A program made the translations under genes and the position numbers. Source: a virus (Duplodnaviria; Heunggongvirae; Uroviricota; Caudoviricetes). Taken from it: a DNA stretch of 39,373 nucleotides. The notes under the pieces are model-generated. The model was not told the origin of the DNA. It was given only the letters and a program-made list of their open reading frames with translations, and made no database searches. Shown here one piece after another: positions 3,369-34,408 of this stretch. The stretch lies in the IMG/VR virus record IMGVR_UViG_2534681996_000012, one strand, 5' to 3'. How positions within the stretch are numbered: position 1 is the stretch's first letter; each line of letters begins with the position of its first letter.

Positions 3369-5384
3369 TTACGCACTTCGTAATAAATGTTTAGACATAG
3401 CAGCAATACAGAAACAAGATAAGTCAGCGTAATTTACACCATACATATCCGATTCTTTATCATAAGTAACCAGAGAATAGTCTGTAGGGTTAAGATTATA
3501 TTTCTCCATAATCAGCATTACTTCTTGAGCCATACATCCGAAGTGATACTTATCAGATTCTGCATCTGTCCATTTAAACTTTATCATGCTAATGGCTAAT
3601 TCTAGCCCTGCACTATACTCTGCCGTAGATATCTCATACACATCTTTACATCTACCGTCAGATGTTTGTATTACACCATTAGTTGCAAAGACAGTTTGCC
3701 ATCTACGACTAGATTGACCACAAGTTCTTTGATTATCTATCTGGGGGGCAACACTACCATCTATACGCAAATAGTTATCTTCCGCTTGTGCGCCTCCCAT
3801 AACACCTTCTAAAAAAGGCAATCCTTTGTGATTATTTACAATGAATTTATTGGAGGTATCTTCTGATATTCCGGTGCCAGCATCTGGACCTATAAAAATA
3901 TTACCATTTCCAGTTGGTAATTTTCTTCCTGCTCTTGCTCCTATCATAACATTCAGGTCACCTGAGGATAGGGAATTGAGAGCATCAACACCAATTGCTG
4001 TATTAAAATTACCTGTGAGAGTCCCAGTGTATGGGTTCTTAGTTGATGATACTCCTCGCAATGCTCCATTACCTATAGCTGTGTTATGATCACCTTGCTT
4101 TAACTCCCTACCAGCTGCATTACCAATAAGGGTATTTCCATTACATTTATCATACCCAAGACGTACACCTTGAGGGTCTGTGTAGATGCCAGTACGCATT
4201 CCTGCAGAGCGTCCTATTGCAACATTAGCTTCTCCAGAATGGAGTTGCTGCAAAGCTGACATACCAACTGCAACATTGAACCTACCATCCTTACACTCGT
4301 TTAGCGCATCCCTGCCAATACCAATCATGTTATTTCCAGTGGTGGCTTTCTTCAAAGCATTAATACCTATACTGATAATCTCTGTTCCAGAAAATGGCGA
4401 CTTATCTGTAAGATCATCTTCTAGAGTATCTCCTGACAAACCACCCACACCAACCACGATTGTGTTAGTGCCGCTAGTTATGTTGCGACCAGAACTTGGT
4501 CCAAGCAAAACCAATTGATTACCTTTACCAGAGTCAGTGTAATTTTTTGCGGCATCATAACCTAAAATAAGGTTGCTATGAGACTGAGCTACATTGGTAA
4601 ACGGAATTCGTTCCGCTCCTGTCTCTTTAATTATTTTTCCTGGGCCATAAAATCTTCCATTAATATCTTCCGGCAATAAATACGTGCCATCAGGAACATA
4701 AACACCTTGTGGCGAAGCAGATGCCGCGGCAATGAAAGCATCTGTATCATTTGTGACTCCATCACCTTTAGCGCCAAAGTCAAGAACACTGACAGTATCC
4801 CGCATCTTATCCTGAAACGTTCTATATACCGCGCCTGAACCATACTGAATAAACCAACCAAAACCACCAACAACCCCGGCGATTGCAGCATCGACATAAT
4901 TACGCATTGAGCGATTATTTACAGCGTCCTGCTCAAGTGATGGATCTGCAAGGTTAGAAATTCTGTTTTGCTTTGCATCGTAATATTTTGCAAGCAAAGA
5001 TGGTTTCATCAATGCACGTCTGAACCACCCAAAACATTGCTGGATCAGCATCGTCAGGTAGTCAAAGGCATCTTCATGCACTTCGGGGAAAAACTTTCCC
5101 TGATTGCGAAGGTCTGTCTCCTGCACTACATCAAGCACACGATCTATCGTAATTCGCCATCCAGCAGCAAGCGGCGACGGAAGAACAACAGAACCGCCAC
5201 TATAAGTGCCCGCCCCAGTTACCGTATAACCGGTATCCAGAACCAATTCTGTTACGTTCCCGTTCAGGTCAGACACCTGAACAACCAGGTCGGATTTTTT
5301 GAAAATACGGAAGGTATACGGAAATGATGTCGTAACGCCGTTACCTGTGTATTCGTTGTGGTCAACTTCGGTTGAGACCGTCAT
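3369..5384 (-). CDS. Tail spike/fibre: T7 gp17-like N-terminal adaptor, beta-helix depolymerase-like centre, C-terminal intramolecular chaperone (peptidase S74-like)
   Basis: N-terminus MTVSTEVDHNEYTGNGVTTSFPYTFRIF...LVVQV resembles T7 tail-fibre N-terminal domain; VLDFGAKGDGVTNDTDAF beta-helix signature; C-terminal region resembles autoproteolytic chaperone domains; RBS GGAG. Confidence 0.8.
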   Translation of the reverse strand: MTVSTEVDHNEYTGNGVTTSFPYTFRIFKKSDLVVQVSDLNGNVTELVLDTGYTVTGAGTYSGGSVVLPSPLAAGWRITIDRVLDVVQETDLRNQGKFFPEVHEDAFDYLTMLIQQCFGWFRRALMKPSLLAKYYDAKQNRISNLADPSLEQDAVNNRSMRNYVDAAIAGVVGGFGWFIQYGSGAVYRTFQDKMRDTVSVLDFGAKGDGVTNDTDAFIAAASASPQGVYVPDGTYLLPEDINGRFYGPGKIIKETGAERIPFTNVAQSHSNLILGYDAAKNYTDSGKGNQLVLLGPSSGRNITSGTNTIVVGVGGLSGDTLEDDLTDKSPFSGTEIISIGINALKKATTGNNMIGIGRDALNECKDGRFNVAVGMSALQQLHSGEANVAIGRSAGMRTGIYTDPQGVRLGYDKCNGNTLIGNAAGRELKQGDHNTAIGNGALRGVSSTKNPYTGTLTGNFNTAIGVDALNSLSSGDLNVMIGARAGRKLPTGNGNIFIGPDAGTGISEDTSNKFIVNNHKGLPFLEGVMGGAQAEDNYLRIDGSVAPQIDNQRTCGQSSRRWQTVFATNGVIQTSDGRCKDVYEISTAEYSAGLELAISMIKFKWTDAESDKYHFGCMAQEVMLIMEKYNLNPTDYSLVTYDKESDMYGVNYADLSCFCIAAMSKHLLRSA

Positions 5385-5488: not shown

Positions 5489-5503
5489 TTACCTTTTAGG
5501 TAA
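5489..5503. promoter_or_regulatory. Operator-like palindrome TTACC-TTTTA-GGTAA in the tail-spike/accessory divergent region
   Basis: Perfect half-sites; 38 nt upstream of the LexA box. Confidence 0.5.
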
Positions 5504-5540: not shown

Positions 5541-5560
5541 TACTGTATAAATATACAGTT
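5541..5560 (+). promoter_or_regulatory. LexA (SOS) box
   Basis: TACTGTATAAATATACAGTT matches CTGT-N8-ACAG consensus with AT-rich centre (18/20 to TACTGTATATATATACAGTA); about 20 nt upstream of the 5581 ATG; degenerate half-box at 5470-5485. Confidence 0.8.
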
Positions 5561-5580
5561 ATTGCATGGAGAAGATTAAG

Positions 5581-5838
5581 ATGCAGCAGTATCACTATCC
5601 ACTGGAAGACGGATTTACCGAAAGGATTCACACGCCGGGAGGCGTCAAGTCACTGGTGGAGGGATCGCACTTGATGAAATTACTCCGGGATCTCGATAAG
5701 GATGGATTTAATGTCGATGGCCCACTTGCCGAACTGACTGCACTGATTAACTACGTCACCAGCTCACAGATGTCTATGCAGGATCTGCAAACACATCTCG
5801 ACTATTGTGCCGAACAATTACGAAAACAAACCAGATAA
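5581..5838 (+). CDS. Small protein sharing a C-terminal domain with the downstream Bro-N antirepressor; antirepressor-like regulator candidate
   Basis: ATG 5581 with GGAG 9 nt upstream (track start 5566 lacks RBS); IHTPGGVKSLVEGSHLMKLL...DLQTHLDYCAEQ aligns with IHSPSGVLGLTENSLLMNLL...DIQTHAEYIND of the 6152-6838 product. Confidence 0.55.
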   Translation: MQQYHYPLEDGFTERIHTPGGVKSLVEGSHLMKLLRDLDKDGFNVDGPLAELTALINYVTSSQMSMQDLQTHLDYCAEQLRKQTR

Positions 5839-5869: not shown

Positions 5870-5884
5870 TTACCTTTGCGGTAA
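5870..5884. promoter_or_regulatory. Operator-like palindrome TTACC-TTTGC-GGTAA between the small LexA-controlled gene and the antirepressor
   Basis: Perfect half-sites; followed by hairpins and a weak terminator. Confidence 0.5.
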
Positions 5885-6838: not shown

Positions 6839-6847
6839 CGGGCGGCG

Positions 6848-6870
6848 GCACAGGGATGTGCCTTTAAAAT
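6848..6870 (+). terminator. Stem-loop after antirepressor gene
   Basis: GGCACA-GGGA-TGTGCC followed by TTTAAAAT. Confidence 0.4.
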
Positions 6871-6904
6871 AATCATTGGCGATGTGATGTAGATTCGCGT
6901 AATA

Positions 6905-6919
6905 TTACCTTAAAGGTAA
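6905..6919. promoter_or_regulatory. Operator-like palindrome TTACC-TTAAA-GGTAA upstream of the toxin/antitoxin-like pair
   Basis: Perfect half-sites, 43 nt upstream of the 6962 ATG. Confidence 0.5.
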
Positions 6920-6961
6920 ACCTGTTTTTATTTTATACCTGTAACTTACCGGAGATTAAAG

Positions 6962-7288
6962 ATGACAAAACTTGGATTCGTGATGAGAGGTCCGGTAAGA
7001 AGCGGAACTCATGCAAAGCGTAGCAAGAGTCGTATTTTTACTGGTAAGGTTGTAGCACGTAAATCAGCTATTGGCTCGTTCAATAGTGAAAATGCGGCAT
7101 TGCGCCATATTTTTATCAGCACAAAGCCAAGAGCATCCGCTGATGTGCATACAATGACTATTCCTATCACAAAGAATATAAAGCGGATAAAAAAGCTCTC
7201 ATCTGCAGAATCAAAAGAGATATCTTTCCGCCAGCTTAACTCATTAGAAACGCATATGAAGGAAGAGGAATTCGATGTTTTTGAGTGA
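6962..7288 (+). CDS. Basic small protein with acidic C-terminal tail; antitoxin candidate
   Basis: GGAG RBS; K/R-rich N-terminal half; C-terminus ...LETHMKEEEFDVFE; stop lies 12 nt after the downstream gene's ATG. Confidence 0.4.
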   Translation: MTKLGFVMRGPVRSGTHAKRSKSRIFTGKVVARKSAIGSFNSENAALRHIFISTKPRASADVHTMTIPITKNIKRIKKLSSAESKEISFRQLNSLETHMKEEEFDVFE

Positions 7289-7787
7289 GTATAGCGGGAA
7301 GGTTATACCTACTGGTGAGTTTAAAACTGATGACTTTCTGATTTCGCTAAAAGATGCTTTTAAACAACACTGGCGTCATGGTCATCATCCTGATCTGGGA
7401 AAAGATACTCTTTTTGAAAGACCAGACGAAGTATTAGGTTTCCATCTCAGAAAGGTTCATGTCAATATTGGTGAATATGCATCATATTCATACTCATGTA
7501 CTGAACAGTGTTGGGATGAGTGGTCATATGGATTGATTGATGAACAAGGAAATTACAGGCCAAAACCAACCAGTAACGCATATCTCATATATGCAGTCAA
7601 TGAAATAAGAGATGCAGCCTTACTAGCTTATTGGGACCCGCCCGCACACACCAAAGCTAACGCAAAAGTTTGGATGGATTCCGTATTGAATTTCACAAAA
7701 TTATTTCATGAACGAACGAATACAGCTCCACTTAGTAGAAATGTTTATCCGTGGGATTATTCGTACAAATCCAAAAAGCCTGCATAG
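7275..7787 (+). CDS. YafO-like toxin candidate (ribosome-dependent mRNA interferase family)
   Basis: Blocks DDFLISLKD, PDLGKDTLFERPD, FHLRKVHVNIG, AYLIYAV and ALLAYWDPPAH resemble the YafO signature as I recall it; GAGGAA RBS; AT-rich. Confidence 0.45.
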   Translation: MFLSEYSGKVIPTGEFKTDDFLISLKDAFKQHWRHGHHPDLGKDTLFERPDEVLGFHLRKVHVNIGEYASYSYSCTEQCWDEWSYGLIDEQGNYRPKPTSNAYLIYAVNEIRDAALLAYWDPPAHTKANAKVWMDSVLNFTKLFHERTNTAPLSRNVYPWDYSYKSKKPA

Positions 7788-7868
7788 TAGTTTTTTATGG
7801 ACGAAACAAAAGTCAGTGCTACACTCATTGACGCCACATTGAGGTGGATTATAGATGGAAATTTCACA

Positions 7869-8030
7869 ATGAAAAAAGCATTTGCTGCACTGTTCGTTTT
7901 GTTGTCTCTGGTAGCTTCAACTCAGGCCTTTGCCGGTCGTTGTCAGCACGACAGCGATACTGCCGCTGACGGCTCCCGCTGCGGTGGGCGTTCTGCGGAT
8001 TCCCGCCCGGGTGGCGGTGGCATTCGTTAA
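7869..8030 (+). CDS. Small secreted peptide (about 53 aa)
   Basis: Classic signal peptide MKKAFAALFVLLSLVASTQAFA then Cys/Gly/Asp-rich mature peptide; weak RBS; track start 7797 places the signal peptide internally so ATG 7869 is preferred. Confidence 0.4.
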   Translation: MKKAFAALFVLLSLVASTQAFAGRCQHDSDTAADGSRCGGRSADSRPGGGGIR

Positions 8031-24623: not shown

Positions 24624-24638
24624 TTACCTTTCAGGTAA
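24624..24638 (+). promoter_or_regulatory. Operator-like palindrome TTACC-TTTCA-GGTAA downstream of a TTGACA hexamer
   Basis: TTGACA at 24602-24607; palindrome sits where a -10 element would be; upstream of tRNA-Arg. Confidence 0.5.
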
Positions 24639-25230: not shown

Positions 25231-25259
25231 ATGACCACAAATTACCTTAAAGGTATAAT
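25231..25259 (+). promoter_or_regulatory. Sigma70-like promoter (ATGACC-17-TATAAT) overlapped by operator-like TTACC-TTAAA-GGTAT
   Basis: Perfect -10 TATAAT at 25254-25259; operator variant at 25242-25256. Confidence 0.55.
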
Positions 25260-28182: not shown

Positions 28183-28214
28183 GTGGTAATAGTTACCGTT
28201 GTGGTAATAGTACC
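28183..28214 (-). promoter_or_regulatory. Tandem direct repeats GTGGTAATAGT(T)ACC just upstream of the terS RBS
   Basis: Two copies 18 bp apart, each containing GGTAA-TAG-T(T)ACC; sit between a terminator and the first late gene. Confidence 0.4.
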
Positions 28215-30878: not shown

Positions 30879-31223
30879 TCAGAACTCTTCGATGTTCCAG
30901 CCACCACCTGCTTTCTTTGGTTTAACCGTTACCCCGATGATTCGGAACGGATACTGATCTGCGGCGACTTTGGTTTTCACCCTGGCGTCGTCGGTCCAGA
31001 AACCTTTCACTTCGTGCAGTTCCATCTCGCCGGTGGCGAGCATCACAGCAAAATCGGGCGTATAGAACGTGTTGTCAGCTAACCGCAGCTTGATACCCTC
31101 AAATCGATACCAGGCTATTTCCCCTGCACGTTTACGCAGCTCAAGGTGCTGGCAATACGCAGATTCTGTTTTGTTCATCTGGCCTGTTTTGAGTCGACCA
31201 AGAGCCTGTATCTGTTTTCTCAT
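30879..31223 (-). CDS. Hypothetical protein, DUF1064-like
   Basis: 114 aa; YTPDF motif; RBS overlapped by operator-like palindrome. Confidence 0.4.
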   Translation of the reverse strand: MRKQIQALGRLKTGQMNKTESAYCQHLELRKRAGEIAWYRFEGIKLRLADNTFYTPDFAVMLATGEMELHEVKGFWTDDARVKTKVAADQYPFRIIGVTVKPKKAGGGWNIEEF

Positions 31224-31226
31224 GAT

Positions 31227-31241
31227 TTACCCCTGAGGTAA
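31227..31241. promoter_or_regulatory. Operator-like palindrome TTACC-CCTGA-GGTAA overlapping the RBS of the 30879-31223 gene
   Basis: Perfect half-sites; imperfect copy TTATC-TAACA-GGTAA at 31289-31303. Confidence 0.5.
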
Positions 31242-31340
31242 TTAAAAACCACATAAGACACGAAATCAATAGATTTTAGAATACTTTATTATCTAACAGG
31301 TAATTATCGAAACGTAAAAAAATGCGCTATCGCGCTGGTA

Positions 31341-33571: not shown

Positions 33572-33634
33572 TCACCCATAAGGTAACAAAAATCAAGGAT
33601 AGTTACCTATGGGGTGCATTTACCTGTTGGGTAA
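33572..33634. promoter_or_regulatory. Immunity-region operator cluster (three TTACC-N5-GGTAA-type sites) with divergent promoters
   Basis: TCACC-CATAA-GGTAA 33572-33586, TTACC-TATGG-GGTGC 33603-33617, TTACC-TGTTG-GGTAA 33620-33634; plus AT-rich inverted repeat TATTTAT-N8-ATAAATA at 33549-33570. Confidence 0.6.
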
Positions 33635-33689: not shown

Positions 33690-34274
33690 ATGAAAAGTAT
33701 CCAGGACGTCCGCAGGCAAAATCTCAACGACTTGATCGACCGTGAATTCAATGGTGTTCAGACGCGGATGGCAGAAAAACTTGGAACTCAGGCAAATCTG
33801 GTAAACCGCTGGGCTCTTGGCAAGAAGGTTATCGGCGACCAGGTTGCGCGAAAAATTGAAGCTGCCGCCAATAAACCCCGTAACTGGCTTGATATCGATC
33901 GCTCGCTTTCTCAGGAAGGTTTTCAGCCTGTCGGCCCAAGCGACATTGGTCAGCTGGCGGCTCACAACCTGGAACGCTGGATGAGCGAAAGCCGCGACCT
34001 TTCAACACAGGGAAAACTTCACCGCGCATCCGGCGTCGCCCAGGTGACAATCAGCCGCCTGTTAAACAATGAGGTCAGCGTTTCCATTTCCACCCTGGAG
34101 AATGTTGCATCCGCATTCGGGCGTCACGGCTATGAATTACTGATTCACCCGCACGACCCTGCGACCATCAACTATGACCGCTCGCGCTACGCATTGTTAC
34201 CCGAAACCGAGAAAGCAAAGATCGAAAGTTACATTGAATTTGTCATCAACCAGAACGAAAAAAACAAACAATAA
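33690..34274 (+). CDS. Prophage repressor, tandem HTH domains, no LexA-like peptidase domain
   Basis: Two XRE-type HTH-like segments (MAEKLGTQANLVNRWALGKK and LHRASGVAQVTISRLLNNE); no Ala-Gly cleavage site or Ser/Lys dyad; followed by terminator and operator-controlled promoter. Confidence 0.65.
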   Translation: MKSIQDVRRQNLNDLIDREFNGVQTRMAEKLGTQANLVNRWALGKKVIGDQVARKIEAAANKPRNWLDIDRSLSQEGFQPVGPSDIGQLAAHNLERWMSESRDLSTQGKLHRASGVAQVTISRLLNNEVSVSISTLENVASAFGRHGYELLIHPHDPATINYDRSRYALLPETEKAKIESYIEFVINQNEKNKQ

Positions 34275-34331: not shown

Positions 34332-34408
34332 TTACCTTAAGGGTAATTTTTTTAACTCATATCTATTGACACCAAACCAAATACGCATAATCATTACCTC
34401 AACGGTAA
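34332..34408 (+). promoter_or_regulatory. Early-left promoter (TTGACA ... CATAAT) flanked by two perfect operator palindromes
   Basis: TTACC-TTAAG-GGTAA at 34332-34346; TTGACA 34366-34371; CATAAT 34386-34391; TTACC-TCAAC-GGTAA at 34394-34408. Confidence 0.6.

Follow-up and report, generated by a model that had tools for sequence, protein, structure and literature searches.

The question raised by this locus is what two small, overlapping genes of 108 and 170 codons are doing in the cargo region of a temperate phage, and by what they are controlled. The genes lie within a 39,373-nucleotide (nt) stretch of viral DNA (Caudoviricetes; IMG/VR record IMGVR_UViG_2534681996_000012), hereafter the window, which is an epsilon15/phiV10-like (Uetakevirus-type) prophage. 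The original prediction, made from the letters alone, described a toxin-antitoxin (TA)-like pair in which a YafO-like toxin follows a highly basic, non-canonical partner behind an operator-bearing promoter. The reading preferred here, to which we assign a probability of roughly 0.6, is that the pair constitutes a type II TA-like cargo cassette with a YafO-like toxin, a partner that neutralises it through its C-terminal tail, and a phage repressor that governs the cassette in trans. The partner family and a tail module shared among partners are the new elements of this account; the toxin call itself is not novel, since RefSeq/PGAP already names the 170-amino-acid (aa) protein a YafO-family toxin.

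The anatomy of the pair (Table 1) agrees with the original prediction in its coordinates, in its 14-nt overlap, in the ribosome-binding site (RBS) in front of each open reading frame (ORF) and in its AT-richness, with a guanine-plus-cytosine content of 0.37-0.40 over 6962-7787 versus 0.50-0.58 in the flanks. Because the toxin RBS is embedded in the KEEEF codons of the partner's tail, translational coupling is suggested. In all eight homologous loci examined, a partner-family gene of 105-110 aa precedes the toxin gene, and both the 14-nt overlap and the embedded RBS recur; the CCGGAGA element around the RBS of the partner gene is also kept across homologous loci. The deposited protein names of the homologs refer to Salmonella, Serratia, Enterobacter, Raoultella and Citrobacter, and the loci occur in at least two kinds of element, namely Uetakevirus-type prophages and an element with an integrase and AlpA. 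Across genera, identity is 66-82% for the toxin and 41-50% for the partner, which is the usual asymmetry for such systems. The two genes are small, co-directional, overlapping and co-inherited, as is characteristic of type II TA systems.

Table 1. Features of the YafO-like pair and of its putative control circuit (positions in the window).
Feature	Position	Strand	Remarks or basis
Partner gene	6962-7288	+	108 aa; candidate antitoxin; PHROG 5933 (function unknown)
Toxin gene (putative)	7275-7787	+	170 aa; YafO-like; long clade (166-190 aa); predicted RelE/HigB-type fold
RBS of the 108-aa gene, GGAG	6951-6954	+	7 nt before first ATG
RBS of the toxin gene, GAGGA	7265-7269	+	5 nt before second ATG
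Partner residues 1-35, very basic, predicted disordered (MTKLGFVMRGxVxxRxxAKRxKxR)	6962-7066	+	conservation, AlphaFold2 (AF2), isoelectric point (pI)
Partner residues 81-107, confidently predicted helix with conserved acidic tail (…ISFRQLNSLETHMKEEEFDVFE)	7202-7282	+	AF2, conservation, tail tests
Weak sigma-70-like promoter	6877-6905	+	TTGGCG 6877-6882, 17-nt spacer, TAATAT 6900-6905; read from sequence
Palindrome TTACCTTAAAGGTAA	6905-6919		perfect 7-bp arms, TTACCTT-A-AAGGTAA
Short hairpin GGCACA-GGGA-TGTGCC, then TTTAAAATAA	6847-6862	+	3' of Bro-N gene
Exact TTACC-N5-GGTAA copies	5489-5503, 5870-5884, 6905-6919, 24624-24638, 28193-28207, 31227-31241, 33620-33634, 34332-34346, 34394-34408		window scan
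Phage repressor	33690-34274	+	HTH_3; two helix-turn-helix (HTH)-like regions (residues 21-61, 104-148), no peptidase domain
LexA box CTGTATAAATATACAG	5543-5558		near-consensus; 5' of ORF 5566-5838

The placement of the 170-aa protein in the YafO family holds as a remote relationship. In a Pfam scan, YafO_toxin (PF13957) was the sole credible family (19.7 bits, below the gathering threshold of 25 bits; E = 9.5e-4; profile positions 7-100 of 101), and no RelE/HigB family was matched. Eleven of twelve relatives match PF13957 and no other family at E <= 0.1 (best E = 8.1e-6), and several relatives carry a precomputed PF13957 assignment; an NCBIfam scan gave no matching model for the toxin or for the partner. 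A profile search recovered a distinct clade of 166-190-aa proteins, many of them named YafO-family toxin by NCBI, in which every organism name given belongs to the Enterobacterales. This search did not reach the 132-aa YafO of Escherichia coli K-12, pairwise BLAST of the toxin against YafO was not significant (E = 1.6), and a PDB sequence search with the toxin returned noise only. Profile alignment of 28 clade sequences with hhalign placed K-12 YafO at E = 4.9e-4, over 110 collinear columns that span YafO residues 14-128 of 132.

The YafO blocks quoted in the original prediction proved to be real, as they align with YafO and with plasmid-borne toxins of the family. A joint alignment of K-12 YafO, five plasmid YafO toxins and the phage clade contains the common blocks G-[KR]-D, H-x-H, [TS]-[SN]-[DN]-xx-L-[IV]-Y and A-H, and R59, H62, Y106 and H125 are invariant across the clade and also present in YafO. 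The clade is approximately 40 residues longer than YafO, with an insertion of approximately 35 residues and a C-terminal extension, and the toxin is near neutral (pI 6.4). The AF2 model of the toxin is confident (predicted local distance difference test, pLDDT, 91.6; predicted template modelling score, pTM, 0.87), and a Foldseek search with this model against PDB and BFVD gave nothing significant. Combined, sequence and model lead us to conclude that the 170-aa protein is a remote and enlarged YafO-family protein whose fold is probably of the RelE/HigB type; by homology it should inhibit translation via mRNA cutting. Association with the 50S subunit has been reported for YafO. No structure of YafO has been solved, and the protein is classed separately, in a family of its own that resembles RelE weakly (PMC7180214, PMC8546651); the literature is divided on its ribosome dependence (PMC7180214, PMC8546651), and its mechanism is disputed (PMC8546651). 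With no structure, a debated family status and a disputed ribosome dependence, YafO is among the least understood E. coli toxins, and the confidently modelled enlarged clade offers R59, H62, Y106 and H125 as catalytic candidates.

The 108-aa partner has no known domain. It gave no match in Pfam, NCBIfam or PADLOC, a PDB search with the partner profile returned noise only, and neither a DNA-binding family nor a solved relative was found among Pfam, NCBIfam and PDB; it does match PHROG 5933. The claim that it is not YefM/Phd-like is borne out, as no BLAST alignment with YafN was obtained at E <= 100, no Phd/YefM Pfam model was matched and the AF2 topology differs; on sequence and model evidence, the partner is not a Phd/YefM (YafN)-type antitoxin. 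The family is very small: 5.8 billion proteins contain six clusters of it, and exhaustive searching of 1.84 billion with a profile yielded 11 representatives, eight of them full-length (104-116 aa) and three shorter partial matches. A phage-collection protein search with the 108-aa protein gave no match, none of 22 pattern matches from a scan of genome contigs with the partner alignment was confirmed, and the family was not described in the literature searched.

The polarity of charge in the partner was described correctly. Within an overall pI of 10.6, residues 1-35 have a pI of 12 (10 K/R, 0 D/E) and residues 77-108 a pI of 5. Both ends are strongly conserved across the family, the N-terminus as MTKLGFVxKGxxxNRxxxKRRKxRxS with invariant key basic residues and the C-terminus as ISAExSxELSFRMLNSLEDRMKEExFDxFE, while the middle is variable. 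In the AF2 model, residues 1-32 are disordered (pLDDT < 50), residues 34-67 form a low-confidence three-stranded unit and residues 81-107 form a helix (pLDDT ~90). This helix is proposed, from conservation and model, to be the toxin-binding module.

The evidence for such a module comes from sister cassettes, which include those of TL-2011b (gp45/gp44), EC.W1-9, E. coli B19695 and enterobacterial loci with Klebsiella- and Pluralibacter-named toxins. Their toxins belong to the same clade (31-47% identity), they adjoin a Bro-N anti-repressor gene as the pair does, and they too have the palindrome of Table 1 in front. The partners upstream of these sister toxin subclades measure 59, 63, 65, 139, 147, 153, 175 and 182 aa; they have no Pfam domain, their N-terminal parts are unrelated, and none has the MTKLGFVMRG…KRRK motif of the 108-aa family. 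When the sister partners are right-aligned, most share a hydrophobic-S pair, seven residues, a hydrophobic-[S or T] pair, approximately twelve residues and a terminal [FY]-D-x-x-E, and this tail motif is common to the partners of 65, 139, 147, 153 and 175 aa.

A narrow hidden Markov model (HMM) of the tail, trained only on the 108-aa family, was too family-specific to detect other lineages, and anchored scoring and leave-one-lineage-out HMMs took its place. Anchored ungapped BLOSUM scoring of the 108-, 65-, 139-, 147- and 153-aa types gave z = 3.2-5.2, with none of 389 real C-termini scoring as high and an unrelated control ORF at chance; the 175-aa partner has the same tail as the 139-aa partner and was given no separate score. 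The leave-one-out HMMs recovered the 65-aa type at E = 1.8e-5 and the 139-aa type at E = 8e-4, and the Klebsiella-named 153-aa type was marginal (E = 0.64), with the best true background ORF at E ~0.9. Since the tail is common to otherwise unrelated partners of one toxin clade, a modular antitoxin is supported, and the most economical reading of these alignments is that a conserved C-terminal helix would contact the toxin and that the N-terminal parts would be interchangeable. The original suggestion of a domain-swapped antitoxin thereby gains comparative support, through unrelated N-termini joined to a common tail of ~30 residues. Its extension to YafN is suggestive only: the YafN tail scores z = 2.86 in the right-anchored ungapped test (p = 0.005; none of 389 real tails as high), and the tail HMMs fail to recover it (E = 370-420). 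The shared tail module was not described in the literature searched, and it should make such antitoxins easier to find and to test.

Two further arrangements were seen among the sister cassettes. In one eroded cassette (loci L016, 627-806, and L017, 106-270, both on the minus strand), a 59-aa partner of the TL-2011b type is intact, and all that follows of the toxin is a C-terminal fragment; retention of the partner beside a shortened toxin fits a toxic product. The E. coli B19695 prophage (L001:1849-2872, minus strand) carries a 175-aa partner with a 168-aa toxin in addition to the pair studied here, the two YafO-like cassettes being divergent and slightly more than 1 kb apart with the Bro-N gene between them.

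The claim that the pair is phage cargo also stands. The relatives HEMP4, ZX5, TL-2011b and phiv142-3 align with the flanks of the pair only, and among 5,426 complete E. coli genomes the flanks are present in 417 and the whole pair in 68. The pair sits 3' of the Bro-N anti-repressor gene and 5' of a small signal-peptide ORF, in a variable region, bordered by the tail-fibre gene on one side and by the virion-protein genes on the other, that is filled by differing cassettes from phage to phage. Because the slot is filled in this way and the pair is often missing between conserved flanks, the pair is regarded as exchangeable cargo.

Regarding control, the original prediction placed the pair behind an operator-bearing promoter. 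The palindrome is real and abuts a weak promoter-like element, but the notion of a private operator is not supported. The promoter scores 8/12 against consensus, which is below threshold, so it was not called by a strict consensus scan. The final base of the -10 hexamer falls within the palindrome, as does the expected transcription start; a -10-like hexamer abutting the palindrome is also seen 5' of sister cassettes and at other copies of the site. Upstream, the hairpin at 6847-6862, which is also present in TL-2011b and was not called by a terminator scan, may act as a weak terminator, in which case the pair would be transcribed as a unit of its own.

The core of the palindrome, TTACC-N5-GGTAA, occurs in nine exact copies in the window versus 0.00 expected, with one-mismatch copies at 25242, 28175, 31289 and 33572. 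Copies lie directly 3' of -10-like hexamers ahead of a 90-aa ORF, the Bro-N gene and the pair; further copies lie around 24.6, 28.2 and 31.2 kb, and others are grouped to either side of the HTH repressor gene, beside perfect TTGACA -35 boxes. Diverged homologs keep the palindrome on their 5' side, as do nearly all sister cassettes. Phage ZX5 is without a YafO cassette and without any 108-aa-family gene, yet TTACC-N5-GGTAA recurs there 10 times at equivalent places, once ahead of an unrelated gene pair in the same slot. The repressor is 100% identical to ORF21 of ZX5 (vB_EcoP_ZX5), whose overexpression shuts off lytic transcription (PMC9782041). As that paper leaves the operator undefined (PMC9782041), and as no paper defining a TTACC-N5-GGTAA operator was found in the literature searched, we infer the binding of the repressor to this site. 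Given nine phage-wide copies and ten in a phage that is without the cassette, the palindrome is most likely the immunity repressor's operator set, as judged from its distribution. Because the palindrome is phage-wide, the pair would belong to the repressor regulon, and probably be SOS-linked.

The SOS link would be indirect. A near-consensus LexA box precedes ORF 5566-5838, which lies 1.4 kb upstream of the pair and encodes a 90-aa product that shares 40% identity (E = 3e-16) with the Bro-N anti-repressor's C-terminal domain. This ORF is likely to be an SOS-inducible small anti-repressor that triggers prophage induction, and its sequence context suggests that an SOS-triggered anti-repressor would derepress the whole regulon, the pair included. 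The operator copy at 5489 also lies upstream of this ORF, and a second ATG at 5581 with a better RBS may be its true start.

Other interpretations of the palindrome were considered and rejected. The window copy does contain ACCT-N3-AGGT, and an MqsA-type site was rejected as the loci conserve TTACC/GGTAA around a 5-nt spacer and AGGT is missing from the Serratia-type copy. An RNA 5' hairpin was likewise rejected: the start predicted from the -10 hexamer lies inside the palindrome, so the transcript could not carry the two palindrome arms together. No evidence was found that the partner's basic N-terminus reads the palindrome, and neither sequence nor model points to a DNA-binding, self-regulating antitoxin. 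As separate observations, a two-HTH monomer on a palindrome of two half-sites would be an unusual binding mode, if true, and the copy at 31227-31241 overlaps the RBS region of a minus-strand DUF1064 gene (30879-31223), away from a promoter, with the one-mismatch copy at 31289 48 nt off.

The mechanism proposed for the cassette combines these elements. A weak promoter gated by the phage repressor acting in trans would keep the cassette low in the lysogen and allow its expression once the repressor is inactivated. Through coupled translation, synthesis of the partner would precede that of the toxin. The partner's amphipathic, acidic helix (~81-107) would dock on the toxin and neutralise its YafO-like RNase activity, the N-terminal part of the partner being lineage-specific and swappable among sister cassettes, and free toxin would cleave mRNA. 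This regulatory wiring best suits a role in host shut-off or phage-phage competition during induction; it suits addiction or a defence expressed in the lysogen less well, leaky expression being conceivable.

Several points weigh against the cassette being a TA system of this kind. The toxin's Pfam score falls short of the gathering score, and the hhalign probability against YafO is just 32%. In the leave-one-out tail HMM, the window's own partner reaches only E = 2.1 and its family mates 0.015-0.15, and TL-2011b gp45 and YafN were not recovered. The strongly conserved basic N-terminus of the partner is without an assigned role. Neither protein matches PADLOC-DB v2 at E <= 1, and the literature searched contains no toxicity, binding or expression data for the cassette or its close relatives. 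If its promoter is indeed shut in the lysogen, classical TA roles (addiction, lysogen-expressed defence) fit the pair poorly.

A wider reading, offered tentatively and with more doubt than conviction, is that the ~30-residue helix is a portable neutraliser grafted on many N-termini, so that the cassettes form a family without autoregulation that is placed on the immunity circuit and makes an RNase at induction or infection. If true, the cassette would be an induction-coupled toxin for host shut-off or phage competition and not for addiction or lysogen defence, and the basic N-terminal arm would have a second function, e.g., RNA or ribosome binding or a degradation signal.

An alternative that dispenses with TA function would have the 170-aa protein as a non-toxic RelE-fold lytic accessory (e.g., for ribosome- or RNA-binding host takeover), merely co-transcribed with an independent basic nucleic-acid binder. 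This is compatible with a repressor operator at the promoter, which suggests lytic rather than lysogen expression, as well as with the toxin's sub-threshold Pfam score, the ~40 residues that the clade carries beyond YafO and the dispute over YafO's own mechanism (PMC8546651); it is nevertheless judged unlikely, since R59, H62, Y106 and H125 are invariant in the clade and common to YafO, the 14-nt overlap and co-inheritance are strictly conserved, shortened toxin remnants lie beside intact partners, and a tail common to unrelated partners is hard to explain unless it interacts with the conserved downstream protein.

Abortive-infection defence or superinfection exclusion would instead rely on basal expression in the lysogen, with the toxin freed when an incoming phage perturbs the partner. 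TA modules commonly act as anti-phage defence, and the cassette occupies a hypervariable cargo slot in which two-gene cassettes replace one another. Cargo slots in other temperate phages are known to hold defence genes (PMC9122126). An operator over the -10/+1 region, however, predicts repression in the lysogen, and PADLOC matched neither protein, which makes a defence role improbable; that ZX5 lysogeny produced no detected phenotypes (PMC9782041) is uninformative here, as ZX5 is without the cassette. Very unlikely is a classical self-regulated TA system in which the partner's basic N-terminus is a new DNA-binding element on the palindrome at 6905-6919 and the complex autorepresses: the palindrome does lie at -10/+1 and is kept in diverged homologous loci, and the N-terminus is strongly cationic with invariant key basic residues, but the site is present nine times phage-wide, at unrelated promoters and around the repressor gene, and ten times in ZX5 without either gene family, it precedes sister cassettes whose partners have unrelated N-termini, and AF2 residues 1-32 are disordered with no DNA-binding family matched.

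The preferred reading, a repressor-governed TA-like cassette, places the pair beside several known systems without making it a copy of any. As in E. coli K-12 YafN-YafO (dinB-yafNOP operon), the toxin has the YafO blocks in a near full-length collinear alignment, a gene in the antitoxin position lies directly upstream, and the partner's C-terminus is an acidic tail containing F/D/E residues. The likeness may extend to SOS control: yafNO is linked to SOS directly through LexA, whereas the pair would be linked indirectly via the LexA-controlled anti-repressor-like gene. The two systems differ in that the phage toxin has 170 aa versus 132 aa, the partner has a pI of 10.6 versus 5.5 and is without Phd/YefM or any other Pfam domain, a gap of 2 nt separates yafN from yafO in place of the 14-nt overlap of the phage genes, and TTACC-N5-GGTAA is absent upstream of yafN. 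Compared to HigB2 of Vibrio cholerae HigBA2 (PDB 5mje, 5jaa) and other RelE-superfamily interferases, the toxin shows 7-18% identity and no significant Foldseek match; the partner gene comes first here, whereas in classical higBA the toxin gene comes first.

In concept, the closest parallel is with PaaR2-PaaA2-ParE2 of E. coli O157:H7 prophages, in which the antitoxin is small and largely disordered, has no DNA-binding domain and uses a C-terminal helix to neutralise a toxin of the RelE/ParE fold, transcription being controlled by a separate HTH repressor. The pair would likewise combine an antitoxin without a DNA-binding domain with a separate repressor. There is no sequence relationship, and the presumed regulator differs in being the phage immunity repressor acting in trans rather than a dedicated third gene of the operon. 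If true, a TA-like cassette under a phage repressor operator would be a clear case of cargo plugged into the lysis-lysogeny switch, and such control would change expectations of when the toxin acts.

YafO-family toxins on plasmids (Klebsiella, Enterobacter, E. fergusonii, Pseudomonas) are also preceded by an uncharacterised non-YafN partner, suggesting that a non-canonical partner is common in the YafO family; YafO-family toxins of phages and plasmids are usually paired with uncharacterised partners and not with YafN. The plasmid toxins differ in having the canonical size (136-152 aa) and partners of 165-205 aa with another C-terminal tail and a hydrophobic N-terminus. Across the six plasmid loci (L022-L027), partner and toxin overlap by 10 nt in three and are separated by 8-9 nt in the other three, and some of the partners have a signal- or lipoprotein-like N-terminus (e.g., MKFNIQYLHAAVVMVLSSLQPQAKAAEC), which is odd for an antitoxin.

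Additional observations concern the neighbours of the cassette and the other occupants of its slot. Downstream of the pair, the small ORF 7869-8030, a match to PHROG 14503 ('membrane associated protein'), has a signal-peptide-like N-terminus (MKKAFAALFVLLSLVASTQAFAG…) and a Gly/Arg-rich tail. A promoter-like element of its own (TTGACG, 16 nt, TATAGA at ~7830-7857) carries no operator, and the ORF may be a constitutively expressed lysogenic-conversion gene. In loci L006, L007, L011 and L012, a gene of the Rap1a family (PF18602), a known type VI secretion immunity protein family, lies directly 3' of the cassette at ~4554-4943 (minus strand). EC.W1-9 (L003, 533-1334, minus strand) and ZX5 (L021, 155-956, minus strand) have in the same slot an overlapping pair of 108 aa and 167 aa. 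The EC.W1-9 copy (L003:533-1334) was considered as a YafO pair and rejected, as it has no alignment with the toxin clade. This slot pair is unrelated to the YafO clade, its 167-aa protein has a hydrophobic C-terminal segment, and in ZX5 it is preceded by an operator copy at position 978.

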